From Amphiscolops sp. MND2022 (lineage: Eukaryota): a DNA stretch of 64,000 nt. The position numbers and the translations under genes are program-made. Shown one piece after another: positions 8,218-57,500 of the stretch. How positions within the stretch are numbered: position 1 is the first letter of the stretch; each line of letters begins with the position of its first letter. The stretch spans positions 12,710,001 through 12,774,000 of the forward strand of contig OZ076410.1 of assembly GCA_964187785.1 (NCBI GenBank), written 5' to 3'. The notes below the pieces were generated by a model. That model saw nothing but the letters and a program-made list of their open reading frames with translations. It had not been told where the DNA came from and searched no databases.

Positions 8218-8426
8218 TTACAGGACTCTACAACGTGACCCATTCTTCCTCTTCTTCTTCTTGTCTTTTTCGGGTGGGTTCAGAACGATTCGCATGGCCT
8301 CGTCAAAAACTTCTTTGACTCCCTTCTGGGTCAGAGCCGAGCACTCGTAATAACGACAGCAGTTGATTTTGTATTCTTTGTTGATTCTTTTCTGAACTTT
8401 GATGGCTTCTTCCGATGTCACTATAC
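8218..8426 (-). CDS. Last coding exon of a Rho-family small GTPase (Rac/Cdc42-like) with polybasic region and CAAX box; probably part of a pseudogene
   Basis: Acceptor ..CCCCTGCAACAG ends at 8427 (phase 1). Exon reads [68 protein letters not shown], matching the Rac G5 region YxECSALTQxGxxxVFDEA; CRVL is a geranylgeranylation-type CAAX. Confidence 0.85.
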
Positions 8427-8740: not shown

Positions 8741-8832
8741 AGTTATTCATTTAGTTTCTAGAGTCCACCTTTGACCGGAGTTATGATCATAGCTAAAAAA
8801 AGTTCGCACTTGAAAGTTTGGTGTTTTTTTCG

Positions 8833-10648
8833 AATAACGTTTTCAATCAATACTGCTGGGAAGTTTTCCTGCTGTTTTCCTTCATACAGTTGTTTTAACA
8901 AAACATGAAGTTTCCAGGAGCATGCATGAGAAAAATGTGAAAAATACACCAGGGTACCAGAAAGCTAAAGACATTCCATTTCAAATATCACATCGCAAAA
9001 ACTTCGTTCATATTCGATAAACACAAACTCCATTGGAGCAAAACCCCATTTCGAACGATGAGTTTTCCGCCTCTGAGTCTATTAGGTGAGAGTTCAGTGA
9101 CACGATGAGAATAAGATGAATTTTGTAGGATAAAAGTTGAGTTGTTGATTTTGGCTATCGCAAAGTTTCACAGTCCAAAGAGAGAGAGAGAGAGAGAGAG
9201 AAAGAGTAACAAAATTGTCAGTACCTTGCAATTTTGTCAACTGGTGGTTGGTAGCTTCTCTTTGAAAGGTGGTAGGACACTTTTCTTACCTTTCGAGCAC
9301 TCTCATTGGTTTACCAATGAAGTGCTAATTAGAATTCCGTCACGTGACCGATCACTGTCGATTATGGTAGGGGGCTACCAACCACGAATCGCCCGTCAAA
9401 GTTACTTTCAAATCAATTTGCATAATACCAATTTCTTGAATTTACCGAGCGTTGGATAAATATCATCTTTGAGTCATCGTCATGTAATATAATTTAGCAA
9501 TGGACATAAAAACGAAGAAGTCTGAGTGTTTAGAAGATAAATTGCACTATTTCAAGGTGAGCGATGTAAAAGTGATGCGTGCGCTGTATTTAGGTAATAA
9601 TTGGATGAAAGAAAGTGAACTTTATCATTTAGACATCGTTTTTTACTCGTTATGCGTGTTCTTAGGTACATCTGTAATGGTGGATTGGAGTTATCGTTGG
9701 TAGGCCTTGACTGAAGTAAGGGGGTTAGAGTTTCTGCAGAAATAACGTTTTCAATCAATACTGCTGGGAAGTTTTCCTCCTGTTTTCCTTCATACAGTTG
9801 TTTTAACAAAACATGAAGTTTCCAGGAGCATGCATGAGAAAAATGTGAAAAATACACCAGGGTACCAGAAAGCTAAAGACATTCCATTTCAAATATCACA
9901 TCGCAAAAATTTCGTTCATAATCGATAAACACAAGCTCCATTGGAGCAAGACCCCATTTCGAACGATGAGTTTTCCGCCTCGGAGTCTATTAGGTGAGAG
10001 TTCAGTGACACTATGAGAATAAGATGAATTTTGTAGGATAAAAGTTGAGTTGTTGATTTTGACTATCGCAAAGTTTCACAGTCTAAAGAGAGAGAGAGAG
10101 AGAGAGAGAGAGAGTAACAAAATTGTCAGTACCTTGCAATTTTGTCAACTGGTGGATGGTAGCTTCTCTTTGAAAGGTGGCAGGACACTTTTCTTACCTT
10201 TCGAGCACTCTCATTGGTTTACCAATGAAGTGCTAATTAGAATTCCGTCACGTGACCGATCACTGTCGAATATGGTAAGGGGCTACCAACCACGAATCGC
10301 CCGCCAAAGTTACTTTCAAATCAATTTGCATAATACCAATTTCTTGAATTTACCGAGCGTTGGATAAATATCATCTTTGAGTCATCGTCATGTAATAGAA
10401 TTTAGCAATGGACCTAAAAACGAAGAAGTCTGAGTGTTCAGAAGATAAATTGCACTATTTCAAGGTGAGCGATGTAAAAGTGATGCGTGCGCTGAATTTA
10501 GGTAATAATTGGATGAAAGAAAGTGAACCTTATCATTAATACATCGTTTCTTACTCGTTATGCGTGTTCTTAGGTACATCTGTAATGATGGATTGGAGTT
10601 ATCGTTGGAAGGCCTTGACTGAAGTAAGGGGGTTCGACTTTCTGCAGA
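8833..10648 (-). repeat. Two-copy ~908-bp tandem derived from an LTR end + primer-binding site + leader of a Gypsy family; contains (AG)n
   Basis: Units 8833-9740 and 9741-10648 differ at ~27 positions (~97%). Each contains minus-strand ..CTAATTAGCACTTCA-T-TGGTAAACC (TGG at 9316-9314 and 10224-10222), homologous to the LTR/PBS junction at 13196. Confidence 0.8.
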
Positions 10649-10649
10649 A

Positions 10650-13215
10650 AGTTAGTTACACACTTTTCAATGAGTGCAATACCAGTGCCAAGAATGGTTT
10701 TGCCAAGGTATTCGATTTTTGACCAAATTCACATTTACACAATCTGAGTTTCAATCCGGCCTTTCAACAGTTGCTGAAAATGAAGTTCTGGGTTTTCAAT
10801 CAATTCATCAGGCGTGTTCGCTGCTTACCCTTATCATCGACATACTGAGCACAGCGGGCCGCTTTGACCAAGGGTTCGAAGTACTCGCAGACTCCCATGG
10901 TGAATGCTGAAAGAGAACGGTTAAGACCTTGAGCCAATCTTAGGAAAGCAAATGTTCGGAACCAAAGTTAAATGACAAAAGACAAAAGATTGACTGTTCA
11001 TCGGCCATTTCTATACAATGGTAGGCGTGGAAACAATAAAGCTTGCAAAAATACATGTTCCCGACCATGTGTTGAGCAGCGATTCAAACAGTGGATACTG
11101 GGTGGTTATGTTCTCCGTAGTCGTTTTTATGAGGAGTGATTTTATACGAAATTGAGGTTCCTATTTGACTTACGAAGAATAAACCACTACAGTTTACCAC
11201 TAAACAACTGGTGGCAGGGAGGGATGATGGTTTTGCACCTGGAATACAAATCAATCAAGCCAGATTTGTATTTCATATTAATTTGCTGTCTTACTTGCAT
11301 TGACAGCATATGATTCGGGTTGACAGAGTACTTTTCGGAGCATGACATTCCAGTAAAGACTGTTCCCATTGTTGGGAGTACAAGAGGAAGACTTCCTCAA
11401 AAACTTTGCCTTCAATAAAAAGCGTAACGAAAATTGTTCTCGGTTGAGGACTAAATTGCCATTAGCAATTTAAACTTTAAAGTTGGGGGTTGAAGCACTT
11501 CAAGAGGGGTGTCGGGGTGGTCTGTTGAAATGTTTCGACGTTCTGTTTCAGATAGTGCACTTTGCACTGTTCCAATATCTAGATGGCTTCATATTGGTTT
11601 TCATATTTGTTTAGTTGTGACAAAACAAACACACTTAATTCTTTTTGTTTAAATGTAATGTTGGCATAAGGACTTTATATGATAATACATGTTTTCAAAT
11701 ACTCAACTGTTGCGAAGAGTCATTTGAAGTTTGTAGTCGTCGATTGGTTGTCGTCAGATGTGGGGACACCTCTTCGGCATCGTTCGCAAGCCTAATTGCG
11801 TCGTCTTGTCAGATGACGTCAAAAGCGTCGTCGTTTCTACATCGATGGAAGCTTTCATTAGAGTGAATCGATTGTTGTTTGTCATCGGCTTTATCGGTTG
11901 ATCATCGGATTTGTTTCTCCACAGATAGACGCTGTCTGCTTTGCAGGAATCGCGGGACGATTGAGTTGTATCTGGTGAGTGTTGTTAATTTTTAAGCCTG
12001 AAACCGGGTGCACACTTTTTTGTAACGCGGGTCGAAATTGTGGCCTTAGTAAAAACCTGTTGTCGTTCCGGGGACAGGCGGTCATTGTCTTCTTTGGCTT
12101 CCATGTGGTTGAAGGGTTTCAGTTGTAGTTTCAAGTCTCGGTGTCGTCCTTTCCTTTGTTTTGCTGGTCGTACGATCGTTCGTAAAGCAATTGTCCATAC
12201 GAGGTGCTGGTTTGCTCTTTCGACAGTCTCTAGCGGAAGGTTCTCATATCCGCAAGTCTGGCATATCGGTTTTGGATTATATTTCGGTTTGTCGTTATCT
12301 TGTTGTTTTGTTTGTTAAATGGTGTCCTGCTTCGTTCTACCGATGGTTTCGTCACGTTGCCGGCCACTGCATTCTTGTTTACTGTGGCCTGGTTTCCCGC
12401 AAAAGAAGCAAATTCCTTCAAATCTTTTGTTCTCTGTCTTGTAGAAGTTTTGGTCGAATCGTTTGAATTCGAGGTTTGTACTGGTATCGCATATCTGATT
12501 GATTTGCTGGTAGGCGGAGGTAGGTTGCTGCATTACCTGCTGGTACTGATATTTGTATTTGTGGATCAGGTAATTTTTTAATCCTTCTGGACTGTTGCCC
12601 TCTTGTTTCGCAATGATCAGAAATTGTTGTAAAATGATTGGCCGTTTTCGAACTAGGAACGTCTTCATACACGTCTGCCCCATCACTGTGAGCTTGTTTG
12701 GCAATTTTCTTGAGTTGTTTTTCAAAACTTACCAAAGTTTGAGTTGTAGGGTCTTCTTTGATTTCAGTCCATTTGTATCTGGCGACGTGTCGCATGTCTT
12801 TTTTGGCAAATTCCTTCCTAAACAACATCTGAAGTACATCGTTCAATGTTGTGGTGGAGGTTATGGTGATCATCTGCCAATAAAATGACTTCGTCATGCA
12901 GTGGGCTTTGCTGGAAACGGATTTTTCTTCCTCTGTGATTTTGTCGGCGATTGGATGGAATTGGTTGAGTAAAATGTGCTCTCATTGTTGTCTTTGTCCT
13001 TTGCTCCTCTGAAGTCCGGGTCGTGTGTCAGGAGCAATTTGATATTTGAATTTGTAGTTTTCTTGGCCAGTCCTGAATGGCGTCGAGTAAGGCGTTTCCG
13101 TTTGGCAAAACTGCCTAATGGTGAGTTGCTGGTAGTTTCGCGTTGGTAGGTGGTGAGACGCATTTCTTACCACCGCACACTCTCCTTGGGTTACCAACGA
13201 AGTGCTAATTAGTAT
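10650..13215 (-). mobile_element. Truncated, degenerate Ty3/Gypsy LTR retrotransposon (gag to RT; RNase H, integrase and 3' LTR missing)
   Basis: LTR end/PBS ..GCACTTCGT-TGGTAACC at ~13190-13210; gag-like ORF pieces 12315-13163; zinc knuckle CFFCGKPGHSKQEC (12369-12410); LYWNVM (~11340-11360); RT core CAQYVDD (~10840-10860) followed by frameshifted GLKL..CKCEFG..EYLGKTI (~10690-10770). Confidence 0.88.
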
Positions 13216-13464
13216 TGGTGACGTTACCGGTTACAGTATTTTATATTCTGGAGCTGCCAACTGAAATCGGTCCATAGCACATTGAATTTTCACCACATTT
13301 GCGTCACTGTAATCCGGTTGCATTCAGTAATGGACATGAAAACAATGAATTTTATGCAGCCAGAAGGCGAATCACAATAAACTAAACTTTTTGCGTGAAA
13401 ACGCACGTCCTAAGATTTTACGCAAAATAATCTCTCGCAAATAATTCAATGCAATCTCTTCATA

Positions 13465-14187
13465 TGTCGTGATCTCCGTCACTATTCTGTGAATCAGTAT
13501 AAATCTTCCTAGGGTTGTGATTCTGACCATTAAAGTAAAAATATATTCCAGAATTATTATTCCTTCCATGCTTTCTTGCTATTTCTAAGTTCGGTGGTCC
13601 AGACTAGTCTAGACCTGTAGACCGCATCTGCCCGAAATCCGCCGTTCTGATTAGCTAAAGTGTTCTGAATGCTGGGTAGTCTTTTCTCATTGATTTCAGA
13701 GTTTATGGATTCCAATATTTGAAAATTTTAGTCTCTTTTCAACTCATCAATCCTCTTTGGGACTTCAGACTTTACTAATTTAGCGGTTTCTTTTGTTGTT
13801 TCACTGTTTTCCCAGATGTTTGAATTCAAAAAAGACCTAAATTTTTCATGTCCTGTCTTAGTCTGCTGGTCTCAAGGTCAATTTCTTCATTTGTGTCCTC
13901 AGAAATGCGGTTTTCCTCTTTTCTAGAGTACGAATATAACATCACTTCGAAATTTCTGCTTGTCTTGGGCCTCGCTCTTTCGTCCTTTGTTTTCTAGTAG
14001 AAGGCATTGAAAGGGAATTCTACTCGATAAATGGTGAATTGTTGAACTTGTAAAATCTAGTATATTTGTGCGGTTGGTCAATTGTATTCTTATAACAGAG
14101 TGCCAAAGCAAAGTTTGTCTTATTCACTGCACGTATCAAGTGTTCAATAAGGTAGACCAACACTTTATGGCTTTGTGACTTCGTGTC
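13465..14187 (-). mobile_element. Solo/partial LTR of the ORF-bearing 'MPST' family, diverged copy
   Basis: Minus strand reads MPSTRKQRTKERGPRQ.. (ATG ~14007), ..ILESINSEINEKRLPSIQNTL.. and ..NHNPRKIYTDSQNSDGDHD-A, ending GATCACGACA at 13465. Collinear with 18545-19194. Its 5' end probably runs into the N gap. Confidence 0.65.
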
Positions 14188-17235: not shown

Positions 17236-18030
17236 GATGAAATAGCTTCTGAATTCTTTATTTTTGTGCATAATACGGTTATTTATAGCCGCATTGTGAA
17301 ATAATCGGTTAAGTCTAGGAATCAGACTAAAAAAACAAATTAGGCAATTAAAATTGTTCACCGTTATTTAAAAAGTAGATTTCTGCGACGTACAAAGATC
17401 AATGACCATAATGGTTCGTTTTTGGCGTTTTATTCAACTTCACGGCATTTCAAAGGTCTTACTTTTGATTTCATTGTTTATCATGGATAGTTTGTAATTA
17501 CTTTTAAAGAAGCCAACGATTTAAAAAACACTGAGTTCTTTTTCGTAGTTACTATGTAAAACAAGCCGGGGACGGCCCAAGTCGGGGCCACGCTCAAAGT
17601 TGAAAACAACAAAGTTTTTATACATGCAAAGGACCAAAAGTGAGACTTTTATTTCAAAATAACAGTGCCAAAAAGCCCGATTTTTGAAAATTAGTTTCTG
17701 TCGCAGGCTGCCGCCTGTGAGGGCATATTCTACCAAATCATGCCAGACGACAATCAGAAGAACCAGGGACCGGGAGTCTTACCCATATGAAAATCTTTAA
17801 CCTCTCCGAAGAATTAAAACAACAAACTAATACGTATTTGTACTGTTAAAGTTGATTCAATTATGACTTTAACCAACATACAATACTTTGTAAAATTGAC
17901 CGAAGGTCAACTTGACAGCAACCTTATACTAAAATTGTCCCAAGTACTGACATTGATATTGTTTTGTACGATTTTGCTTAATTTTTCTTTTGGATACACG
18001 TTGCGTCAAATTTGTTTACTGCAATAGTTT

Positions 18031-19194
18031 CGTAATTGTGTTTTAGAACAACCTGAAAGGTGCTTTAATATCTTGTAGTACGAGCAAGAAAGCTGGAAAA
18101 CACGTTCAACCTGCCTACTACTGCAGTCAGGATGACGCGTAGTCCAAACATATTCTCAGCCAATCAGAATGCAGTAAGAACCATTCACTGCAGACACGCT
18201 GACGCTTGGTCAGAATTAGTGTTTTGCTAAATATTGAGGCTCTCGTTACATGAAATGTTGCTTTTAACCTAGAATTAGTAATCTTCTATTTATTACGTTA
18301 CAATTTTTAATGCTATTCATATCTTCCCAACCAAACTGACGTAATGTCTAGAGGACTGATCTCACTCTAAATTTAGCTACCTGACGCACAAATTTATGCG
18401 TGTCACGCAGTTTAAACTATATATACGCGGAACTAGTTGCTAAAAGGATGAATGATCATTATCACCACCTACACTCAAAACACGATACTATTCAAATTGT
18501 TCTTTCTTACAATTCACTGTTGATACCAAATTTCTTTTTTGATAATGCCTTCAACTAAAACGCAGAAAGCAAGGGAAAAACGTTCTAGACAATCTGACGT
18601 GTTGTCAGTTATTGAAAATCTTGATGTAATGCTCGGAAGTTATCAAAGAGATGACTGTAGAGTGCAAGAGAGAGATAGTGAAAACGAAATGGACTTAAGG
18701 TCAACCAGACAAAAAGGAAGAATGAACCAGAATTATAGTGAATTCAGGTCTTTCTCAAACACTAATTTTAGTGAGACTAGTGGTTTGACCGAAGAAACTA
18801 TTAGAGCAATCAATTCAGAAATTACTTGGCTAATGTCTAGAAAACTTGAGGAAATGAAATCAAACCTAAATTCACACATATTAGACGTAATCAACTCTGC
18901 CAATTGAGGAAAAGTTGATACCGAGCATCAAAAATGCTGTAGGAGGCCAAAATTCAGCTAAGAATACAAATTTGGACCTTCTGTCAGACGGACCGCATCC
19001 GAGTAATTTTAGTCAAGTACGTCCTCAGAGGGACTTTCAGTCAAATGGTGGACTGCATCCGAAAAAGGTTAGCCAAGTGGCTCAGGATGCTCAGAAAGAC
19101 CTTCCCAGAATAGTAGCAATTAGTAGTAACCGAATAAATCACAGTAGAGGGAAGTCAGTGGATTCTAATCAAAGTGATGGCGATGGTTACGACA
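18031..19194 (+). mobile_element. Putative ~1.16-kb solo LTR carrying an internal ORF (MPSTKTQKAREKRSRQSDV..., 18545-19194, one frameshift at ~18902)
   Basis: Ends ..GGTTACGACA (19194). Flanked by GTTT (18027-18030 and 19195-19198), with (C)GTAAT at the left end as a mutated TGTAAT. The ORF is coiled-coil-like and homologous to 13465-14007 on the opposite strand. The left boundary is tentative. Confidence 0.6.
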
Positions 19195-19959
19195 GTTTCA
19201 TTCGAATTTTTCAAACGTTTCAAAGTCTCACAGTGTCGGAAAAGGAACTTTCAGCTCACAAAACTACTTTTTCCAAACCGAAAACTTATCAGAGTGAGGG
19301 AGGTGCTTTTTAACCAAATAAAAGTTTTGGGAAAAAAATTAGCACAAATCCGAAATAAAAGCGGAAAAACGTCTTTCCCACCCTAAGAAAACTCATTTGT
19401 TCCACATGATCAAAAATTTACCAAAGAGGTCACCACCAAGACCCGGGAAACAATTTCTGTTTCAGAAAAACAAAAACTGTGAAAAAATACTTCAAAAAAA
19501 TTCAAAAAAAATCTTTTCACAAATCGTTTTGCTTCGGTGAGTCGCTCAGTGCCTAAAAGAGTAATCTTTCTTGCTCGCAAAACACTTCCTTCTGAATTAA
19601 AACGTTGTTTGAGTTTTTACTTTGCACTGACATACGTGAGAAGGCAGAAGCGTATAGAATCGGTTCGATGTATTAAATCGCAGTACTCCCCTTTCGTTCA
19701 TAAAACTCTCTAGAAAAAGATGGTTTTAAATTGCCAGAGGGCAGGTACCTGAATCTTTTTGACCTTCGAGATGCAAATTGTTGCTTTGATGGTGAATAAA
19801 TAGCGAATTGGTGAGATGCCGAACTTTAGAGGCCTTGTTCAAAATTTTTTCTGTGAAAGCGCGCTTTAGTGCCCCAATTCAGTTGTTTTTGAGCGTGGTT
19901 GAAATATAATCAGTGAAACCCTTGAGAAGAACTGCCGAATAGTGTAGATGGGCAAATGA

Positions 19960-26717: not shown

Positions 26718-27344
26718 CGGAATGCATGAAAATTTTGAGCTCTCTAAGTTTCAAATGTGTCAACAGTTGTTTCAAAACAACTCTGAACATTGCAATTCAG
26801 TTGGTCAGTCATTCAATTGACATTTTTTCTTCGAAGCAAATGAAATTTCACACATCAGAAGTGTGAACGAAATGACTGGTAAAGACGTCTTCACTTTTTC
26901 TGAAGGTTCGGATTGTTCTTTGTTGAAGATTTGATTACGTAATGGGAGAACGATTGGCAGAGAAAAAAAGAAAGATTTTCAGTGACTTGTTTACATTTAT
27001 TACGATTCTGAAGAGTGAAGTTTCTATGCGGTCCTTTTTTGGTTCACCTAGTAGAATGCACACTTTGATGGCTTTTACAGTTTTAATGCATGCTATTCGT
27101 GGGTAAGAAATGTTGAGTTACCACTATTGAAGTCAATGAGTTTCTCACCCATGAAGTTCTTGCGACTAGTTAACTATTTAGTGGTTTTTAGCACCAGAGA
27201 TACTCGAGAATTAAACATAAGCTGCTCATGATTCAGGAGAACTTCCATTTATGGACGGACTACGGCTTTTGAAAAGTGTAGGTCGGCATCAGTTTCTTGA
27301 TACCAGGAATCTTCACCGGGTGGGTCTTACAGATTTATGTTCTT

Positions 27345-30030
27345 AACAATTCGTCCCAAGTGATAATTCGCCCCAAATTCCAAAAGCCGACAATTCGTCC
27401 CAAGCGACAATTCATCCCAAATTCCGAAAAGCGGCAAATCGTCCCAAGCGACAATTCGTCCCAAGCGACAATTCCTCCCAAGCGACAATTCGTCCCAAGT
27501 GATAATTCGCCCCAAATTCCAAAAGCCGACAATTCGTCCCAAGCGACAATTCGTCCCAAGCGATAATTCGCCCCAAATTCCAAAAACCGACAATTCGTCC
27601 CAAGCGATAATTCGCCCCAAATTCCAAAAACCGACAATTCGTCCCAAGCGACAATTCGTCCCAAGTGATAATTCGCCCCAAATTCCAAAAGCCGACAATT
27701 CGTCCCAAGCGACAATTCGTCCCAAGCGACAATTCGTCCCAAGTGATAATTCGCCCCAAATTCCAAAAGCCGACAATTCGTCCCAAGCGACAATTCGTCC
27801 CAAGCGATAATTCGCCCCAAATTCCAAAAACCGACAATTCGTCCCAAGCAACAATTCGTCCCAAATTCCGAAAAGCGGCAAATCGTCCCAAGCGACAATT
27901 CGTCCCAACCGACAATTCGTCCCAAGTGATAATTCGTCCCAACCGACAATTCGTCCCAAGTGATAATTCGCCCCAAATTCCAAAAACCGACAATTCGTCC
28001 CAAGCAACAATTCGTCCCAAATTCCGAAAAGCGGCAAATCGTCCCAAGAGACAATTCGTCCCAAGCGACAATTCGTCCCAAGCGACAATTCCTCCCAAGC
28101 GACAATTCGTCCCAAGTGATAATTCGCCCCAAATTCCAAAAGCCGACAATTCGTCCCAAGCGACAATTCGTCCCAAGTGATAATTCGCCCCAAATTCCAA
28201 AAACCGACAATTCGTCCCAAGCGACAATTCGTCCCAAGTGATAATTCGCCCCAAATTCCAAAAGCCGACAATTCGTCCCAAGCGACAATTCGTCCCAAGC
28301 GATAATTCGCCCCAAATTCCAAAAACCGACAGTTCGTCCCAAGCAACAATTCGTCCCAAATTCCGAAAAGCGGCAAATCGTCCCAAGCGACAATTCGTCC
28401 CAAGCGACAATTCGTCCCAAGCGACAATTCGTCCCAAGCAACAATTCGTCCCAAATTCCGAAAAGCGGCAAATCGTCCCAAGCGACAATTCGTCCCAAGC
28501 GACAATTCGTCCCAAGCGACAATTCGTCCCAAGTGATAATTCGCCCCAAATTCCAAAAACCGACAATTCGTCCCAAGCAACAATTCGTCCCAAATTCCGA
28601 ACAGCGGCAAATCGTCCCAAGCGACAATTCGTCCCAACCGACAATTCGTCCCAAGTGATAATTCGCCCCAAATTCCAAAAGCCGACAATTCTTCCCAAGC
28701 TACAATTCGTCTCAAGGGACAATTCGTCCCAAATTCCAAAATGCGGAAATTCGACCCAAGCGGCAACTCGTCCCAAGCGGCAACTCGTCCCAAGCGGCAA
28801 CTCGTCCCAAGCGGCAACTCGTCCCAAGCGGCAACTCGACCCAAGCGGCAACTCGTCCCAAGCGGCAATTCGTCCCAACCGACAATTCGTCCCAAGTGAT
28901 AATTCCCCCCAAATTCCAAAAGCCGACAATTCTTCCCAAGCGACAATTCGTCTCAAGGGACAATTCGTCCCAAATTCCAAAAAGCGGCAATTCGACCCAA
29001 GCGGCAACTCGTCCCAAGCGGCAACTCATCCCAAGCGGCAACTCGACCCAAGCGGCAACTCGTCCCAAGCGGCAACTCGTCCCAAGCGGCAACTCGTCCC
29101 AAGCGGCAACTCGTCCCAAGCGGCAACTCGTCCCAAGCGGCAACTCGTCCCAAGCGGCAACTCGTCCCAAGCGGCAACTCGTCCCAAGCGGCAACTCGTC
29201 CCAAGCGGCAACTCGTCCCAAGTGATAATTCGCCCCAAATTCCAAAAGCCGACAATTCTTCCCAAGCGACAATTCGTCTCAAGGGACAATTCGTCCCAAA
29301 TTCCAAAAAGCGGCAATTCGACCCAAGCGGCAACTCGTCCCAAGCGGCAACTCGTCCCAAGCGGCAACTCGTCCCAAGCGGCAACTCGTCCCAAGCGGCA
29401 ACTCGACCCAAGCGGCAACTCGTCCCAAGCGGCAACTCGTCCCAAGCGGCAACTCGTCCCAAGCGGCAACTCGTCCCAAGCGGCAACTCGTCCCAAGCGG
29501 CAACTCGTCCCAAGCGGCAACTCGTCCCAAGCGGCGGCAATTCGTCCCAACCGACAATTCGTCCCAAGTGATAATTCGCCCCAAATTCCAAAAGCCGACA
29601 ATTCTTCCCAAGCGACAATTCGTCTCAAGGGACAATTCGTCCCAAATTCCAAAAAGCGGCAATTGGACCCAAGCGGCAACTCGTCCCAAGCGGCAACTCG
29701 TCCCAAGCGGCAACTCGTCCCAAGCGGCAACTCGACCCAAGCGGCAACTCGTCCCAAGCGGCAACTCGTCCCAAGCGGCAACTCGTCCCAAGCGGCAACT
29801 CGTCCCAAGCGGCAACTCGTCCCAAGCGGCAACTCGTCCCAAGCGGCAATTCGTCCCAACCGACAATTCGTCCCAAGTGATAATTCGCCCCAAATTCCAA
29901 AAGCCGACAATTCTTCCCAAGCGACAATTCGTCTCAAGGGACAATTCGTCCCAAATTCCAAAAAGCGGCAATTCGACCCAAGCGGCAACTCGTCCCAAGC
30001 GGCAATTCGTCCCATTTGGAAAAAGCGACA
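27345..30030. repeat. 17-bp-unit satellite (GCGACAATTCGTCCCAA / GCGGCAACTCGTCCCAA) with 27-bp variant units and higher-order structure
   Basis: About 2.7 kb of continuous units. Variants GTGATAATTCGCCCCAA and ATTCCAAAAGCCGACAATTCGTCCCAA recur periodically. One inverted unit, GTCGCTTGGGACGAAC, lies at ~30253-30268. Confidence 0.97.
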
Positions 30031-30775
30031 CTTCGTCCCAAAGTGTTCATCTGATCAGCTAATTAACAAGAATTTGAAAACTGAAATCAGAATTGAACAA
30101 ATAAACTACAAAATTTGCCAGAAAAGGTCATATTAATTGGTGTTGATTGTTGGTACCTGCCTCTAAATGCAATATTTCCGGATTCATTATTACAAAGGTT
30201 TGGCATTATACATGAATTGGCAATTCAATTGGGTCCGGATTGCAGCTAATTGTCGCTTGGGACGAACTGTCGCTTTAACGATTCTCAACAAACCATAAGC
30301 ATTGCTGCTGTCAATCAACTGATAACGCAACTATCATTGTTGCATTCTGAACCCTGAGTTTTCACGAGTTTTCCAACACTCTCCGAAATGCTCCAAAATT
30401 TTATATTTGCTACGGTATACCAGAGTTTTGACACCGCCAATTAGCAAAAATTTTGGCGAATTAGCGGCCGAGTAGAATTTTTTTCAGCAATCCAACTTAG
30501 CGGCAACTGATTGTTCAACTTTGAAACATACTTTATAAAGTCAGACATTTAATAGTTTCAAGAAGAAGTTTGTCAGCGAATTAGCAATTTTGAAATTAGC
30601 GGTTTTCCGATTAGTGGAAAAATGGAACGACTGCAGAGAACTTTTGTAACTTTCGACACTCTCAGAAGTTCTGTCTTTTGGAGGCATTTAATCACACCTT
30701 TCTCATTTTAGTTTTTTTTCAAAAACAAACATTCAGATATTTTAAGAATTCTTCAGTAACGAATATTAAATTTTT

Positions 30776-45553: not shown

Positions 45554-48500
45554 GTACTTCGCTACTTCTTCACTGCAACATGCATGCATGCATTCATCTA
45601 TTCATGCATGCATGCAAGTATGCATGTATGCATTCATTCATGTATGTATGCATGCATTCATATATGTATGCATACATCCTTGTATGCATGCATGCAATCA
45701 TCTATGCATGCATGCATGCATGCATGCATGCATGCATGCATGCACTGTCCTCTTGTTTGAAAATCGCACTTTTCACTTTCACCATATAACGGAACAACTT
45801 TGATGCAGAAACTTTCACTTTCAAATTGAACGTAGGGTTTGAATCACATTCAAAGAACGGATGCAATTGAGAATGAGAAAAAAATTGGCATTGTTGATAG
45901 CATTGGATAACTTCCAAATAACTAAAATACGTTCGATTGGAACGACAAATCTTCCAGTAACAAGGAGGTTTTCAACGCGCAATCAAATGAATTTACGGCT
46001 GTTTCAATATCTTATAGTGGAAAAGACTTCAACCTTAGAAGTCTTCAAATATCAGGAAAATTTCCGTATCTCGAGGCATAATTTAGTTTTCCTTGCATCA
46101 TATAATCCTGGAGTGTCATCAAGACATTCATCTGAACAAATAGGCACTCTGGAAATGATGACTAACCAACTTGTTCTTGTTCGCACTTTGCAGTGGAGAG
46201 GGGAGACTACACGTCGGTGCACAATTTCCTGGAAGACAGTTCCATCTACTTCAACCTCAACATCAACTGTGTGGATGCCCTGGGCAGAACGGCTCTGCAC
46301 ATTGCGATCGAAAACGAGAATATCGAGATCATAGAACTGCTGCTTGCATTCAACATCGAGGTCGGAGATGCCCTCTTGTTCGCAATCGAGGAAGAGGTCG
46401 TCCAGGCTGTCGAAATCCTCCTCAACTACAAACAACCCAAGGCCGGAAAAGGTACTTCCGTCGTCACGTGACCTAATTTCTATGTGAGCTAATGCGAACT
46501 AATTTCAAGGTTCATGTGAACTTATTTTCCATTTTTAGTCGGCGCTTCATGAACTGAAACGCGACTATAATAGTGACTTTTTTTTCAATTCACAACAAGT
46601 GACCAAAATAGCTCTACAAAGTTCTACAACATTTTTCAAGGGGTAACTGAACTATAAAAAATGTTCCTTTTTTAGCGCAACAATACCGGACGAGACTAAA
46701 GGGTCCCCGTTGAATTTTTGACGGAATCCGGTCGGACAAATATTTTAACAAATGATGGCATATCTTACTTATTATCATTTTTGAATCATCGTTTCTTAAT
46801 AATAGTTCACAATTTTCGGCATTTTCATGTTGAGAAAAGTAGAATAAAATTTTCCCACTGTTTAAAGCAAAAGTTTACTTTTTTTCGTCATACTCATTGT
46901 CCAATTCAGAAAACAGTCCTTCATTTGTTACAGTTGGGGATAATGTCAGGTCTGTCCGGTATCCGGCCTCAATCAGTCCTGTCCGGTCGGACGGAAAATT
47001 TTCTGTCCCCTGTAACTCTAATCATTAATAACAGCACGGGAACGTCTCAAGTCGGCGCTAAATGTAAGGCTCAAAACCCTCAAAACGTTTTTGAAATACG
47101 CTCAGGACGTTATGGACGAAATTCAGGACAAAATTCACAAAAAAAATCCGAAACACCAAAAATGAGCCTTTCGTGCTCGGTAAACGCTTCAGAAGTTCGG
47201 ATATATCGTTCTGGAACAAATGGGAGCGCTTGTTTTGAACCTCCGCCTCCTCCTTGGAAAACGCAATATAGTTCGGTACAACGTCAACAATTCGGATATA
47301 GCGGTTTACTTCGGATATTCGGATAGTATTGAAAAAATTTGTTGGATACATATTGACAAAACCTAAAATCAGACGAAAAATGAGAATTTTGAAACAGTCT
47401 CATAGTGCCCAAAAATGTGAAAGGGGGATTCTCTGGGACTTTTAAACATCCATTTTGTTGCAAAATAACAAAACAATAAAGGGGACGGACCCTTTGAAGA
47501 CAATAAAAATTTTTCGAAAAAGTCTCAGTGTCGGAAAAATCGAAGGGAGGGCCTTTTGCAATAACTTAGATGCGTTTCCGAGGTATTCGTTTAGTTGAAC
47601 AAACAAACTTTCGCCACATTGGAGTCTGTCTGAAAGAAAAAACGAATGACTGTAATAGTCGGGTTTTTAGTCGGCGCTTTTCGTAGAAAACGCAGACTAT
47701 AGCACTGGCTTTTCTTTTTTTAAGACCAATGAAGTGACGGAATTTATAAGCTTTATATGCTGGCTTCGACTAACTGCCACACTAAACTGCTACTTCTACT
47801 GGCACTTGGCATAGAGGTTAATTAGGATTTTTTGAGGTCTGCCAAGCAGAAGGACGTGAAGAAGGGTTCGAGTCTCACACTTGACCAAATTTTTTGTGCA
47901 TGTTATTTCGGCTTTGTGAGACTTTTTAGACTTTTTTATTTCGAAAATTTTTTAATGTCTCCAAAGGGTCCCCAAAGACAGCCGGGGGTGTCCCAAAGAC
48001 GCACTTACCAGGGCGAACCGGAAATAACGTGAGAAAATGGTAGCCCCTTCAATTTTTTCTATTTTATAACAGAATGGATGTTCAAAAAACCCCAAGGGGT
48101 CCCCCCTTCTGCATGGATGCGACTTACCGAAGACCAAAAAAAATTGAAAAAACATTTAAAAATTAGATTTTTTCAATTTTTTCCTCATCCGGGTACTGTA
48201 GACGAGAATACTTGACACTTTGGAGTTCTTTTGCTATTTTTGAGCCTTAGATATGGCGCCGACTTGGGCCGTTCCCGGTTTGTTTATTATATAAAAGCGC
48301 AGACTAAAAATTAATTTCTCAATCTACAAATGGTATTTTCCATCTTGAAGATGCAAACCCATTGTTCGAAACCATGGTACCCTTGCCAAGATCCATGGCA
48401 AGTTCCTTGCTAACCTCACTTAAGGCTGGTGATAAAAGGTGTTTCCAAGAAAAAACAATGCGCAACGTACAGTAGTGAGGGAAAAATTTCGCACTTCTGT

Positions 48501-51500
48501 TTGTGACAAAACTTTCGGACGAGAGACATTTTGTCCAACTTTGGATATGATGTCAAAGATTCGGATATAGCGTGCTGGACCGAATGGTTCATTTCAAGGC
48601 TTTTAGTTGAACTTTTGTAAAACTATTTGGTCACGTCGCGTGGATTGAATTTTTTAAACAAAAAACTGAGGAAAAGCCACTATTCGCGAACAGTTGTCGC
48701 GCTTTTTATTTCAATGAAGTGCCAACTAAAAAGTATCCGCCCTTTCAGTGGAATCACCCAGAATTGTCACTGACCATATAACACTAAGCTAGGGATGAAG
48801 GACTGACTTGCTTGCGAAAATGTTTATGATGAAGAGACAGACAGACAGACAAACAGACAAGGTTTGTTTGCAGGGAAGAAGGATCAGTTCAACATGGCGC
48901 TGATGCAAGGCCAGAAGCAGAGGGAGAGCAATTTCACACCCGACATCACCCCTGTGATTCTGGGTGCCCACAAGAACAACTACGAGATTCTGAAGCTGCT
49001 GGTCGGAAGGGGCGCCACCATCGTGAAACCCCACCCCGTCAAGTGTGGCTGTTACGAGTGTGTGCACAGTTCAACCTTCGACAGTCTCAGACACTCACAG
49101 ACCCGCATGAACGCCTACAGGTGACAAAACCTAACGCAAAAAATATCAGGCTCCAGCCCGGGTTCGAACCCGGTACCTCCTGTCTGCCAGACAAAATCTG
49201 GCACTTTTCCAGTTTTCCTCAAAAACGTTTGGAACATTTATATCTAACAATATCAGTAAATATTTTTCCCCCACCACCAAAAATTTTTTGGAAAATTATT
49301 GAAAATATTATAACAAAGACTTGAATACAAACCGGAAACCTTCAATTTTAAATTTCTCTCAACCATTCTGAACAGATTCATTATCCTGGAAGAGTGAACA
49401 AAACAGCGTTTTAAAAGTGTTGGCATGCCCTTCACTTCCGGTCAGTTCCACTCGTGAACTGAATGAAGCATTTGATTGAAACAATTGCACAAACTCATTT
49501 CCGATACACAAAGAAATTTAATGCACAATCTCAAATTGAAAAGTGAAAAGACTCTTAAAAACTCAAAGGTTGGCAGGAAACTGGAAAAGTACCTAAAATT
49601 TAATGTATAACAAAACGCCCGCTAAGAACTGGGATAATTTCCGAGTCTTTTGTGCCCCCCACCATGAAATTTTTTCAATGTAAAACTTCAAAAATTGTTT
49701 CTTTAAACTGGCCTGATGAGAAGAGAAATCTTCTTCCAAAACAGGAAGTTAACTTCTATTGGAATGTTTCCGTTTGAACATGACATTTTTCACTGACTTT
49801 GACTGTAATGATGTTCGAATTAACTGTTTTTTTGTGACTTGAAACAGGAAACTGTTGATTTCCTAATCAAAATTGAGTGATTTTCTTGAGAAAAACAGTG
49901 TGAACAAAGTATGTATTTGGATCCCAAAGTGCCACCGTGAAATTAAATACAAAATTAAAGGTTTTTAGTGCGGTTTTTAGTCTTTTTATAGTAATAATTT
50001 CAAAAAAAATTGGTAGTGACTGGAACAGAAAGGAACCCGCCATAAAAAACTTCCGGCTCCAGTCCGGGTTCGAACAAACGACCTCCTGTCTGCAAGGCGG
50101 ACGTACTACCAACTGTGGGAAAAAATTTTATTCTGAAAAAAATCTGTTTTCTAAAGAATAACTCTTTTGGTTAAAAAAAAAGAGCAAAACACCAACAAAA
50201 TGGTATTTTTATCGCATAGTTGCAATCAAAAGCAAAAACATATGTTAAAATCGAAAAAGTTTAAATGCTTTCAGGATTTTCCAGTGGCTCTTGTTTTTTA
50301 TCCCTAGTCGACTCTGCTGGAACTTTTTACATGCTGCAGGGTAATTTTTTCATGCAACCTATATAATTCAGATTGCGCTCAGGGAAAATTTAATATTAAA
50401 TAATTACTTTCATTTATTCTTTCAAAAAGTTCTCGGAATGATTTCTCACGTTTTCAGAGCCCTTGCGAGTCCCAGTTTGATGATTCTGGCCAGCGACGAC
50501 CCAATTCTGACGGCGTTCGAGCTCAGTTGGGAGCTTTATCATCTGAGTTTCTCGGAAGTCGAATTCAAGGAGGATTACATCAAGTTGGCGGACCAGTGCA
50601 CTAAGTTCGCTGTGGATCTTTTGGATCAAACCCGGGGTTCCCAAGAATTGAAGACGATTCTGAACCGGACGACGGACCCGCAGGAAATTCTGGAGATGTC
50701 TGACGAATCGAAAGAGACGGAGCGTGAAAACTCTATTGGGACAATGAACTTGTCTCGTTTCAAGTTGGCCATCGAGTATCGCCAAAAAGAGTTCATCGCC
50801 CATCCAAACTGTCAACAACTGTTGAGCCATATCTGGTACCAGGGGATTCCCGGGTGGCGACAGGGATCCATTTTCTACAAAATTGGGTTCACGTTCCTAA
50901 TTTCGGTCTCTTTTCCCTTCACCGCCGTTTTCTATATCCTTTTCCCCTTCACTCACCCAGCTAAAGTGCTACGCAACCCGTTTGTGAAGTTTATCAATCA
51001 CAGTGCGTCTTACATGGTGTTTCTTTTCCTGCTTATCCTAGCTTCTCAGGAGGAGTTTTCCAACGTGGACGACATGGGAGCTCGTGACAGGCCTCCCAAT
51101 ATCCTGGAATGGATAATCGTTGCGTATGTTTTGGCGTTCGTCTGGGCGGAAATGAAGGAAATCTGGGAAAACGGTTTTCTTTCTTACTCAAGGTTCGTCG
51201 GTTTTATTTTATAAAATTCACATGTTTTCAATCCACATTTCGCTTACGATCAAATTATATACTATCCGTTTGGAAAATTGCTCAAAAATGTCAGCATTAT
51301 CTTCCGCAATAAAGTTTAAATCCATCTCACGGTTTTTATGTAACTTAGGATTCCATAGGAATCTATCTATGTACATTTTGTATTTTTATAAGAATAAATT
51401 ATTGGTAAAATATATTAATTGATGATTATGATGTTGACTAGGGGTGTACCGGACATCAAGTCCGGTCTGGTCCGGTATCTAGTCGGGTTTCAAAAAAATG

Positions 51501-54500
51501 TCCGGTCCAGTATCCGGCAGGTCTTTTGATGGCATCCGGTCGGACAAACATCTCATTAAATGATCGCATATCTCAGGTGAAAGTCACTTTCGAACCACCA
51601 TTTCTCGACAACACTGAAAAATTTCTGTGAGGATTTGATTTTGAAAAAATTAGAACATTTTTTTTACTATCTTTGAGCAAACGTCTACTTCGCTTTTCGT
51701 CATACTCATTGATCAATTCTGAAAGACAGGTTGACCAAATAAGATGTGCGCTAGCTTTCCAATCATAAGATTGCAGGGTCGATTCCCGATATCGTCAAAT
51801 ATTTTATAATTCTGAAAATAGTTAGATATATTTTTCAAATACTTTTCAATAATTTGCAATCTCCAAACCGATTTCTGCACCGATTTCAGATCGAGACAAC
51901 TAAAATATTCGTTTCTCTTTTCAAAATAAAACGTACTGTATTAGCCAAATTACAGTTTCTTTACCGGCTCCAATCAATCCTGTCCGGTGCACCTCCAATG
52001 ACGACGATAGTTGGGAAACACGGCTGGTGGTTTTTAGGGACATGTGGAACATTATGGACTTCATGCAAAACACCCTGTACTTAGCAACAATATCGCTTCG
52101 GGTGGTAGTCTATTTCGGACCCCAACTGGACATTGAACGCGCGGAAATGGACTCAAGTGACCCCATGCTAGTTGCAGAAGCGCTTTTCTCAGTTGCCAAC
52201 ATCTTCAGCACGATGAGGCTTCTGATTTTGTTCATCGCGAACTCGCAGCTCGGGCCACTGCAAATCTCAGTGGGCAGAATGATCATTGACATCATCAAGT
52301 TTCTCTTCATTTTCGCTTTGGTCATCATCTCGTTTGCAAGTGGCATGAATCAACTGCTCTACCTCGAGTACGCCAGTGTGAGTCGAAGCATCGCAGGGGA
52401 TTGTGAAGGTTCGTTAGTTTGTCTACGAACAACTTACTCTAGACTTTTTTACACCAAAAAGCTAAAGACACTTGGTGATGGCGGCTCTTGTCTGTTCCCC
52501 CAACCCCCCCCCCACCACCAAAATTTTTGAAAGTAAATTTCCTTAAAAATTTCAGACTAGTCTAAATAAAAATAAAACATTCTTCCATAACAGGAAGTTA
52601 ACGTCTATTAGAATAAATTTTTGTTTGAAAAAAAAACATTTTTCACACATTTTGGTTGTAATTATGTTCAAATTAACAGCTTTTTTGTGACTCACAACAA
52701 GAAGCTGTTAATTTTCTCATCAAAAATGGGTGACTTCATAGGGGAAAATAGTGTGAACAAATTTTATATCTCAGTTCCAAAAAGCCACACTTGAAATGAA
52801 TTAAAATAGAAGGTTTCTGGTTTGTATTCGAGTCTTTTTAAAATAACATTTTCACTATGTTTCCAAAAAATTTGAGAGGTGGGGCGAGTGTGACAGGGTT
52901 GACAAAAAGACTAAAAGAAACTTTAATTGAAACATATATACAACTGTCAATCATAGTATGTTCAATTATCAAAACTGTGTTGTCTATTTATATATTTATC
53001 AACATTGTCAATAGTACCAGCAGAATCGTAGACCACCAAAAGAAACGGTGAACCATTTCACCACATGGTTTAGTTAATGAATAGATTCTTGCTCTGCTCT
53101 CCTCTTTGTAATCTAAAAAGAAATACAAGTTCTCTGAGTATAAAAAACCCTATAACATGGCGCTGCGAGCCGAACTTTCTACGGGAACCCAGGCAATAGC
53201 AGGACTTCCAACTTATTGGCAAGATGCCTCCAAAAACCCTACACTAGAATGGGAAAAATGGCGAGATCTATTCGAAGTGGCATTAATGGCCAAAATCAAC
53301 ATATCAATCGCAGAATTGATCAAAACGGGAAATAAAGAAAAAAGTTTAATGGGAGATCTCGACGAAATACCAGCTACCAAGAAAGCTATCAGTATACTTT
53401 ACCTTGCACTGGGATCAGCAGGACGCAAATCAATCGCTGACAAGTTTCCCACCACCAACATAGCAACCATATCACTCCCCGATCTGTTAAAGAACTGCAA
53501 AGACTGCTTCGAGAAGCCAAAAAATGAAACTCTTGATCGTTTCAAATCTCTATCCAGAAAGCAAAAAGAAGGCGAATCATTGAAGAACTTCTGGAACGAA
53601 CTAAATGGGTTAGCCGCAAAGTGCAACTTTGGCGCAATAACAGATAGTTTAGTGAAAGATGTTTTCACTGTGAACATGATAAACCAAGAAGTTCAACAAA
53701 AACTGTGCACAGAACCAAAACCAACAGCGGCTGAAACAATTCAATTTGCAGTTGCGTATGAAGAAGGCACATTGAGACAACAATCATTTGGCACATTAGA
53801 CAAGCCAAACAAAAAAACTGAAGTAACTGACGTGAATAATATTAACCAAACCAATAAACGATGGGGACCAACCAAAAAGTGCTTCAGATGTGAAGGAGTA
53901 ATCACACCACAACATTTAAAAGAGTGTAAAGCTTTGGGCGTCACTTGCATGAAATGCGGGAAGAAAGGGCATTTTGCCCGATGTTGCCAAACTAGAGGAG
54001 CCGGAACATTTGCGAAAAATCGCAAAGTAGTAAAACCTCCTCAGAATATTCAACGTATTGATGAGTGGAGTGAAAGCAGCGAAGATTCAATAGTGGATGA
54101 CGGGAAAGTAGTACTCACAATCGAGGGCGATAACAAAGAACAATTCACCATGAAAGGAAAAATAAACGGAAATCCATTCCAAACAATGGTAGACTCTGGA
54201 TCACCCGTGACAATATTTGCTATTGACGAAATAAAACAAATAATGAAGCGCAAAACATTATTCATCAGAGAACTACCAGCAGACGAGGAATATGTGGACT
54301 TCAACAAACGGAAGCTACAACTACTGGGCTACATATTCTGTCATCTAAAAGTGGGTGATAGCAAACTAAACAAAGCCCGAATATTGATTGCAGACAAAGG
54401 CGCGAAGTCACTAATTGGACGTGATTGGTTGAATGCATTCAACTACAAATTCGTATCTCCAACAAAAGACGAAGGTAACAAAGCTATTTACACAATTAAA

Positions 54501-57500
54501 CAAATTATTAAACAACCAAATAAAACAACGCAACCTAGTGAACAGACTAAACCAAAAACTTGGAACGATAATGATAACAATAACGAAAAGATTAAACTAC
54601 AAAACCAATTTTCTTCTCTGTTCACGAGACAAGGACAAATTCGTGATCATACTGTAAAAATTGAATTCAAAGCAGAAGCTAAAATAACGCAACAGAAAGG
54701 TAGACGAGTACCTATCCAATTACAAGACGCGGTCCAACAAGAAATTGAAAGACTATTAAATGAAGGACATATTGAACGAGTAACAGATATAACAGATAAA
54801 CAATTTATTCAACCGGTCGTAATAACAGTAAAGCGAGATACAAGCGTGAAAATTGCACTAGACGCACGAGCGCTAAATAACGAATTAATTAAAGACAAAT
54901 ATCAAATGCCGAATTTAGAACATCTCGTAGACATGGTAGCAGAACAGCTAGATAATAACGAAAGCGGACAAGCGTGGTACACTTCGTTAGATATGCGATA
55001 TGCTTATGGTCAAATACCATTAGATGAGGAAACGGCACGCCACTGCAATTTCCAAATAATAGGCGGCAAAGCAACGGGAACATATCGCTTCATCACTGGA
55101 TTCTATGGACTCACAGTGATGCCTACCGAGTTCCAGAAAGTTATGGATAAAAATTATCCAACAGTGCAAATACGTATGTCTTTTTGGATGACATACTAAT
55201 AGTAACAAAAGGAAGCCAAGCAGACCATTACGAAAGCGTAAAACACGTACTAGAAAAACTAGATAAAGCGAACATACGGCTAAAATGGGAGAAATGCAAA
55301 TTCGCACACAGCGAAATAGAATGGTTAGGGTACCACCTAACACAAACAGGAATAAAACCAATCAACACAAAAATTCAAGCGATAACTGACAAGCTTAAAC
55401 CAAAAAATTTAAAAGAACTAAGGTCATATTTGGGCGCAGTGAATCAACTAAACAGGTTCATACCCAATTTGGCACAACTATGCTTTAAATTACGCCCATT
55501 GTTGAAACAAGACAAAGTATGGTGTTGGACCGAAAGTCATGACAAAGCCTTCGAAGAAATAAATAAACAAGTCAAGAAACTTACAGAAGTAGGTCACTTC
55601 AAGAAAAGCGGATAAATAAGAATTATTTGCGACGCCAGTAAAGCAGGTTTAGGTGCTGTACTACAACAGCAAGAAGAAATTGGTTGGAGACCAATCCACT
55701 TCGCTTCACGTTTCCTCACACCATTAGAAGAAAAATACTCAATTAATGAACTTGAGTTATTGGCAGTTGTCTGGGCAGTCGAGCACTTCAAAAACTATCT
55801 ATACGGGATAAAATTCCAAGTCGTATCCGATCACAAAGCACTAGGCACCGTTTTAAAAAGTAACAAAGGTAATAAAACATACTCAAGCCGACTCACAAGA
55901 TGGGTTGATCGTCTACTTCCTTTCGATTTTGAAATCTTCCATGCTCCAGGCAGAACGATCGGAATTGCAGATTACTTGTCAAGACACCCATCCCCAATAG
56001 AAGGTACAAGCGTGAAAGCAGAAGAATTGTGGAACAACTGGTTCACAGTGAATCATGTAAATAATGTAAATAGCATTTTAGCTGAAGAATTCAACGGACC
56101 AATCAGAGGCCGCCATTGGATCCAATTGAGACGTGACGATGAACGCAGTAAAAGTGAAAGCATTCGCGATTCATTCAAAGCACGCAATACATTGCAATTC
56201 AACAACGACAACAAAATGGGACAAACAAACTCAATCAATACGATTGCAGGTAATTCAATTTCCCAAAAATTTGAGTCAAAATTACCAATTGCCAATAAAA
56301 TTGGTGAAAACTTACTAATCGCCAATTACAAGGATTATGAAAATTTACAAAAAATCATCAATCTAGTCAAAAATCCCACAAAAGCCAAAATAAAAGCACT
56401 CGACAGCCCATGGCGTGAACGTTTTACTTCCCTTTCACTAGATGAAAACGATCTCTTATACTTAGATGACCGTCTCATAATCCCAAAAGTATTACAAACC
56501 CCGATCAAAAATTCATTACATTGGGGACACCCTGGCCGCGACCAAATGTTACGTCAAATTTCGGATATATGGTGGCCACGTATCCACCGAGATATCACAC
56601 TTCTTACAAAATCGTGCTTGGAATGTCAAAATGCGGGTAAGTCGATTAAACCTCTTTTAAAACAAAAACAATTCGGTAAACTCCCAACTCCAATAACAAT
56701 AAATGAAGAAATAGCAATCGACTTCGCGGGACCGTTCAAAATCGCCCGTAGCTCAAAGAAATATCTCATAGTCTCGGTAGATAGTAAATCAGGTTGGCCT
56801 GACGCAAAATTTCTCCGCGCCCCAACCACCTCCAAAGTAATATAATTTTTAACTAACTATATAGCAAATAATGGAATACCACGACGAATTCGTACAGACC
56901 CGGGAACAGCATTTAAAAGCGAAAAATTCCAAAATTTTTGTCGTAAATATTTCATTGAACACATTATCTGCCCAATCTACGATCACAGGGGCAATGGCAA
57001 AGTAGAAAGATTAATCCGCACTATAAACGAACGATTAAGGACAAATAAAACAATAGTACTGGATAAAGAAAACACCGGATTATCTGAACTACTATACGCA
57101 CTGCGAACTGCCCCCAAAGAAAATAAATTGTCACCAGCGGAACTACATACAAATCGAAAATTTACTACTGTCAAAGATATAATAACTACTAAACCACAAC
57201 CAAACTACAATGTTTCAGACAAAGACAGCAACTTCGAACTGGAGATGAGTGATTTCCCGGCGGACCAGGACTCAGAAATTCTGGTGAGAGAACGTGCCAG
57301 AGGTTCAAAACTGGAGGCAACATACAAGAAGAAGAAAGGCCGAATCATCAACGAAATACCACACACGCTCAAAATAAAAGAAAGAGGCAAATCACTGCCA
57401 ACACTATTGAGTAAGCGTGAAGTGGCTACTTCACACAAACTGGCCAATCTATACCAAACAGCACAAACCAACAACCAATCACAAGACGCCAACATTGATG

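Follow-up and report, generated by a model that had tools for sequence, protein, structure and literature searches.

The window, the whole 64,000-nt stretch of Amphiscolops sp. DNA analysed here, was found to contain at 17699-19194 (+ strand) a decayed solo long terminal repeat (LTR) of a large Ty3/gypsy family. In this family the gag frame opens 195-216 codons before the end of the LTR and continues without a break through the primer binding site (PBS) into the capsid and zinc knuckles, and the N-terminal third of Gag thus probably comes from the LTR. We give this reading a probability of roughly 0.88.

The left border of the LTR lies at 17699, the base at which alignments to 11 other loci begin; a first-pass annotation of this DNA had placed the start at 18031, and homology to these loci moves it 332 bp further left. 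The LTR measures 1496 bp, has the termini TGTCGCA...TACGACA (an inverted match at 6 of 7 positions), and is flanked by the target site duplication (TSD) GTTTC at 17694-17698 and again at 19195-19199, so that the duplication first seen as a candidate GTTT is present but has 5 bp. The first ~90 nt of the LTR (17701-17790, + strand) hold the last 29 codons and the stop (..PGVLPI*) of a 3' accessory sense ORF. A TATA box follows at 18418-18425 (+ strand), 127 nt 5' of the ATG and behind a conserved GTGTCA motif. The ATG at 18545, a frame change at ~18902 and a GACA end at 19194 had all been annotated and were observed as described, with the length of the ORF corrected from ~215 to 216 codons in total. 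This ATG opens MPSTKTQKAREKRSRQ; the first frame stops at 18905-18907, and the second is open from 18891 to 19313. The first piece of the LTR-coded Gag N-terminus (18545-18907, + strand) carries a basic start, a spacer and the start of a long predicted helix and breaks near 18900, and the second (18891-19194, + strand) ends in Y-D plus the A that in full elements is completed to A|TG by the PBS. Residues 1-119 and 120-216 of the family Gag align to these two pieces and end at 19193. Since all 11 related loci are gapped against the window near 18900, the frame break is probably private to this copy. The stopless LTR frame runs on into host DNA for 39 codons (19195-19313, + strand) before meeting a stop. 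Our search of the animal's own genome (1.07 Gb) returned 1478 candidates, of which 40 were scored and the 30 best matches analysed; the GACA end falls at the same point in 26 of these 30, the window being counted among them. Over the ORF part the window LTR is only 80-89% identical to its 11 relatives, and we therefore consider it old.

A second LTR copy was observed on the minus strand at 13465-14007. Genomic matches, three of which terminate exactly at 13465, identify it as the 3' part of a more decayed LTR from another subfamily, with an assembly gap upstream and no PBS after it; one relative, L114, has a degenerate PBS and gag after its LTR end. It had been annotated as a homolog ending in the same phase; it is a true homolog, but it has several frame breaks and its phase agrees for the last 46 codons only. 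Below it, at 8800-13400 (- strand), lies a decayed gypsy element that belongs to a more distant lineage and ends in a 908-bp tandem duplication. The second copy was considered as the 5' LTR of this element and rejected, as no PBS adjoins it and the element is only 29-34% (gag) and 50-58% (RT) identical to the family. Elsewhere the window contains a 17-bp satellite with long chance ORFs (27263-30050), exons of what we take to be a TRP channel gene (46166-52530, + strand) and, presumably, the end of a Rho-family GTPase (8220-8400, - strand).

Full-length elements of the family were located by the exact LTR/PBS junction pattern, which matched 1083 times genome-wide against 1 match for the reversed control. 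Our junction sample was the first 40 listed matches, all on one contig (C1); four of these (L041, L061, L062, L073) carry unrelated upstream sequence. Twenty of the 40, picked mostly for open gag frames, were followed for about 18 kb, and in 19 of them the upstream segment was repeated at the other end of the element (16 full-size elements and 3 shorter derivatives). A second segment copy was also observed within 10 kb in 6 of the other 20 loci. The full elements have a total length of 15.7-16.4 kb, LTR pairs 97-100% identical and, in 13 of the 14 with both ends in view, a 5-bp TSD; direct terminal repeats with TG..CA ends and a 4-6-bp TSD are as in Ty3/gypsy elements. The annotation had itself raised the alternative that the segment is internal gag, or the ORF1 of a DIRS or other element, rather than an LTR; a LINE ORF1 was considered along with these. 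The segment does look like coding DNA (58-61% purine vs 46-52% upstream), but its duplication at both element ends refutes this alternative, and the direct repeats, TG..CA ends, 5-bp TSD, PBS and DDE integrase leave it next to no probability.

At least 12 nt of the PBS were complementary to tRNA-Leu(CAG)+CCA in 40/40 junctions, 10 nt being fixed by the search pattern. The tRNA-Leu(CAG) with whose 3' end it pairs was called in two of eight loci scanned; the tRNA-Leu 3'-end pattern matched 966 times genome-wide, and a large tandem array of tRNA-Leu-like 3' ends with a ~296-bp period was observed at 35.587-35.637 Mb of contig C8 (G000). The elements encode gag, pol, two or three antisense ORFs and then a sense ORF of 280-320 codons, with pol apparently in the -1 frame relative to gag, to go by the translations. 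Both pol proteins scanned against Pfam have the gypsy-type order protease-RT-RNase H-integrase, and one of the two has a dUTPase-like match (PF00692) between protease and RT. Assignment to Ty1/copia was rejected because integrase does not precede RT, and assignment to DIRS or other tyrosine-recombinase elements because TSD, direct LTRs and an rve integrase are present. The family RT is closest to PDB entries that we take to be those of caulimovirus, foamy virus and Ty3. For Gag, 30 of 55 aligned members matched DUF1759 and 13 matched Retrotrans_gag, and the zinc knuckles of the family's own Gag fall below the curated Pfam cut-off; capsid and nucleocapsid parts are both present as in Ty3/gypsy gag, the weak capsid fold matches given below included. 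The extra ORFs gave nothing above the Pfam cut-off. In 7/7 elements the stop codon of the 3' sense ORF was located 86-89 nt into the 3' LTR, and the window keeps the same peptide. Because this accessory ORF also finishes in the LTR's first ~90 nt, both LTR ends are, judging from the reading frames, coding.

Several variants were observed among these elements. The tract before the 3' LTR is G-rich in the MPST subfamilies and in both sister lineages described below, and pyrimidine-rich in the MPTT subfamilies (L057, L058, L063, L064, L066, L078), where it ends in ..CGCAG or ..TGCAG and belongs to the 3' ORF. The MPTT tract does not look like a polypurine tract. Five loci (L042, L052, L054, L055, L065) are young 7.7-9.6-kb derivatives, three of which (L052, L055, L065) retain the LTR-started gag frame and two (L052, L065) have an internally shortened pol of 417 codons. 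The non-autonomous derivative L065, with identical LTRs, has captured a host eIF2A-family/WD40 ORF (L065:3043-4383, - strand; PF08662, E 4.7e-54) and a stretch resembling what is presumably elongation factor 2 (L065:2618-3079, - strand). In L081, L085, L092 and their partners, antisense ORFs of ~400, 174 and 690 codons without Pfam names lie at 8.3-12.7 kb of the element. A further locus, L119:2440-8301 (G000:C9, 6.87-6.88 Mb), consists of seven ~1.94-kb tandem units, four of them seen, each combining a decayed LTR end with a PBS and the start of gag.

The annotation had predicted that in full-length elements A+TG would form an in-frame Met within a frame continuous from LTR to gag, and this was observed. 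The frame was fully open from the LTR ATG across GACA|TGG to the gag stop in 18 of the 40 sampled junctions; the remaining 22 comprise decayed copies and the four that look unrelated. Across the 18 open loci the start (MP) lies 195-216 codons before the LTR end and the gag stop 374-383 codons after it, and the other five frames hold 4-32 stops. Among the 31 loci in which the start pattern was found, 25 had their start codon in frame with the junction. The PBS is read in frame as M-V-T-G, followed by the capsid and zinc knuckles, so that the layout is of the Ty1 type, with an in-frame LTR start and a frame open across the PBS.

Selection on the LTR-coded part was measured by dN/dS (Nei-Gojobori) on these 18 loci, a set preselected for openness whose pairs are related and non-independent, four of them with dS >2. 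Values of 0.06-0.29 were obtained in 15 of 16 pairs (one was saturated), with bootstrap upper limits of at most 0.44, and three pairs with dS of 0.3-0.6 gave 0.09-0.13. The comparison across subfamilies proposed in the annotation thus stays well under 1, and by this codon measure the LTR-coded frame is under purifying selection. Constraint was not uniform: dN/dS was lowest in the first 30 codons and the helix, and the last third was weakly constrained (0.14-0.76).

Structure prediction suggests that the LTR-coded part consists of a basic tip, a spacer, a 55-residue helix and a disordered tail. AlphaFold placed one helix at residues 83-138 with disorder around it (block pLDDT 79-87 over residues 91-130). 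A coiled-coil extension had been proposed for this region; a long helix is indeed predicted, and coiled-coil assembly stays putative, the trimer prediction for residues 78-142 (score 0.12 vs a mark of 0.32) being uninformative either way. The LTR-coded part had no Pfam match above cut-off, an ESM Atlas search with Gag residues 1-150 gave a best value of 0.76 and none from 0.8 up, and a PDB sequence search with the Gag profile returned the zinc knuckle only (E 0.03). The full-length Gag model was poor (pTM 0.21) and had no fold match at E 0.001. The internal capsid part gave a helical domain model (pLDDT 83), and it is this part only whose best fold matches were PNMA2 and dArc, both gypsy-derived capsids, together with Copia capsids; these top-ranked matches are weak (E 0.003-0.07), the best at E 0.003 and none reaching E 0.001. 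The layout makes a matrix-like job, targeting and self-association, likely for the LTR-coded part.

The arrangement extends beyond the window's family. A profile search returned distant Gags in which the MVTG motif comes after 114-223 residues. Of three looked for in this genome, two were present at 97-98% identity and one had no close match. Two sister lineages have 114 and 189-193 LTR codons, respectively, and in 10/10 of their elements the junction coincides exactly with the LTR end; a TSD was present in 9/9 where visible. Their RT-RNase H is 69-81% identical to that of the main family, and dN/dS was 0.14 in one pair and saturated in the other. In a midpoint-rooted RT-RNase H tree of 19 rows, restricted to this genome's elements (2 of 21 were dropped for short matches), each LTR-codon length class formed one group. 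The N-termini of the three lineages (114, 189-193 and 195-216 codons) gave no significant alignment to each other. In one protein, P0125, three consecutive HMVTG-like motifs precede the junction (residues 185-228). They may be remnants of former primer sites that the LTR has absorbed, an idea that also fits the start of the distant database protein P0139. Five database proteins were spurious LTR gene models with random tails.

A Met at the junction is forced, because the LTR ends in CA and the PBS begins with TGG, and it need not be a start. Gag might nevertheless be initiated mostly at the junction AUG or later, through a second promoter, splicing or internal entry, in which case the LTR-extended form would be an isoform of minor or regulatory importance. 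In all six elements checked the junction AUG stands in a strong context, with G at -3 and +4, and the first AUG has T at -3 in four of the six; however, the junction context follows from the LTR end and the tRNA and says little. P0139 is predicted to begin at MVTG, a protein model with no genomic context. An unrelated gypsy element in the window (52889-58274; 269-bp LTRs, TSD GCGAG, RT 27% identical to the family) likewise has the last A of its LTR plus the PBS TG as its first in-frame gag Met, which places its PBS in the gag frame as well. Against such a start, 5-8 in-frame and 7-15 out-of-frame AUGs lie between the first start and the junction (6/6 checked), so that scanning would hardly reach the junction AUG. 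The low dN/dS and the phase kept across the 114-216-codon forms further show that the extension is needed in frame. We consider initiation at the junction improbable, and retain initiation inside the LTR as the preferred reading.

For initiation inside the LTR, the promoter would have to lie upstream of the start codon, and a TATA box was observed at -113 to -169 of the ATG in 14/14 aligned LTRs. In the window, this would put the RNA start near 18445-18450. The conserved TATA box thus points to a long R/U5; no AATAAA was conserved in the alignment of family LTRs. The 114 lineage has TATA[AT]A at about -260, and the 189-193 lineage has none close before its full-length start codon. Transcription would begin some 25-30 nt past the TATA box, giving a leader near 100 nt; translation, initiated at the first AUG, would then proceed across R/U5, the attachment end for integrase (..Y-D) and the PBS (M-V-T-G). 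The product would be a Gag of 570-600 residues, with Pol reached via a -1 shift at the gag stop, and R+U5, hence the minus-strand strong-stop DNA, would measure about 750 nt.

Pairs of elements with shared LTRs but different interiors were observed, as was the reverse; faster LTR evolution accounts for only one of these two mosaic patterns. Switches lie near the TATA box, at ORF +60 to +100 and at the PBS, and are too scattered to fix R. During reverse transcription the tRNA serves as template for the new PBS, and U5 and interior may derive from different RNAs, so that a swap at the PBS is possible in each replication round. The mosaic pairs, seen as switches along the sequence, are consistent with a putative exchange at the PBS. 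A broader proposal would make the LTR an exchangeable Gag module, its N-terminal third swapped between subfamilies at the PBS, four codons reset from the host tRNA, and 3' and solo LTRs expressing a capsid-less, dominant-negative brake. The mosaic pairs (PBS, TATA box/ATG) fit the swapping part, and the brake part finds no support here; as a whole we regard the proposal as rather unlikely.

A total of 334 window-type LTR ends were found genome-wide (control 40), of which only 90 were followed by a PBS. Among the 30 best loci, 16 were solos flanked by a TSD, which was exact in 13 and had one mismatch in 3; a PBS or its remnant was present in 4, and 10 were unclassable. In the 16 solos the LTR frame runs on into the flank for 3-39 codons, and it was open in only one of the eight with a recognisable start. 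The first-pass claim that every solo LTR deposits a promoter plus ORF is therefore true of the structure, but the frames decay. Selection might alternatively act on the frame as a protein in its own right, expressed from 3' or solo LTRs, for example as a dominant-negative brake on the family. MMTV sag and HIV nef in U3 are analogues, and Ty1 reportedly uses a truncated Gag as a restriction factor; a TATA box and ATG on every LTR, and the excess of LTR ends over those with a PBS, would suit such a role. The frame, however, lacks its own stop and gains a site-dependent tail, and the single open solo in eight, from an old subfamily, speaks further against it; we judge selection for a separate protein very improbable. 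Under the preferred reading, the stopless frames of 3' and solo LTRs would run into the flank, and such copies would be by-products, mostly decaying. Because only one of eight testable solos is open and the window copy is broken, host use of the solo-LTR ORF is not supported for the old subfamily sampled.

The usual split between a regulatory LTR and a coding interior is broken in this family, with ~740 of 1500 nt coding, at both ends. The same LTR also holds the promoter and the attachment site, and the coding frame continues through the primer site; reverse transcription would need a ~750-nt strong-stop DNA while ribosomes cross the primer site. The lineages with 114, 189-193 and 195-216 LTR codons, together with the unrelated element with a junction-ATG start, form a natural series for how an LTR gains coding sequence. 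In practice, 3' and solo LTRs of this kind give spurious gene models with random tails.

Protein-coding sequence is carried by retroviral LTRs in their U3 ORFs, namely MMTV sag, HIV nef and foamy bet. The 3' ORF of the family, ending 86-89 nt into the LTR, resembles nef entering U3. The retroviral ORFs lie upstream of the promoter and encode separate proteins with their own stop, whereas the long frame described here is situated 3' of the TATA box and forms part of Gag.

Large Ty3/gypsy elements such as planarian Burro, rotifer Vesta/Juno/TelKA and plant Ogre have a dUTPase and extra ORFs, according to the excerpts of the reports considered (PMC6431247, PMC5408684). They are like the family in exceeding 10 kb and in their long LTRs, post-pol extra ORFs and dUTPase-like domain between protease and RT, and unlike it in that the same excerpts mention no gag codons within the LTR. 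A literature search, mostly of non-subscription papers, found no gypsy element with a long LTR gag start, and the excerpts of PMC13524379 and PMC3286476 hold nothing on long LTR-coded gag. The closest layout is that of Ty1, whose PBS lies inside GAG (PMC4974528, in excerpt). With a 53-nt leader and a PBS at nt 95-104 (PMC5454406, in excerpt), Ty1 has about 14 LTR codons before the PBS, compared with 114-216 here, which include a predicted 55-residue helix. The family also differs from Ty1 in its PR-RT-RH-IN superfamily, tRNA-Leu primer, 1.5-2.1-kb LTRs and 16-kb elements, and in the second coding stretch at the 5' end of its LTR. The layout of the family is thus a variant of that of Ty1, about fifteen times longer.
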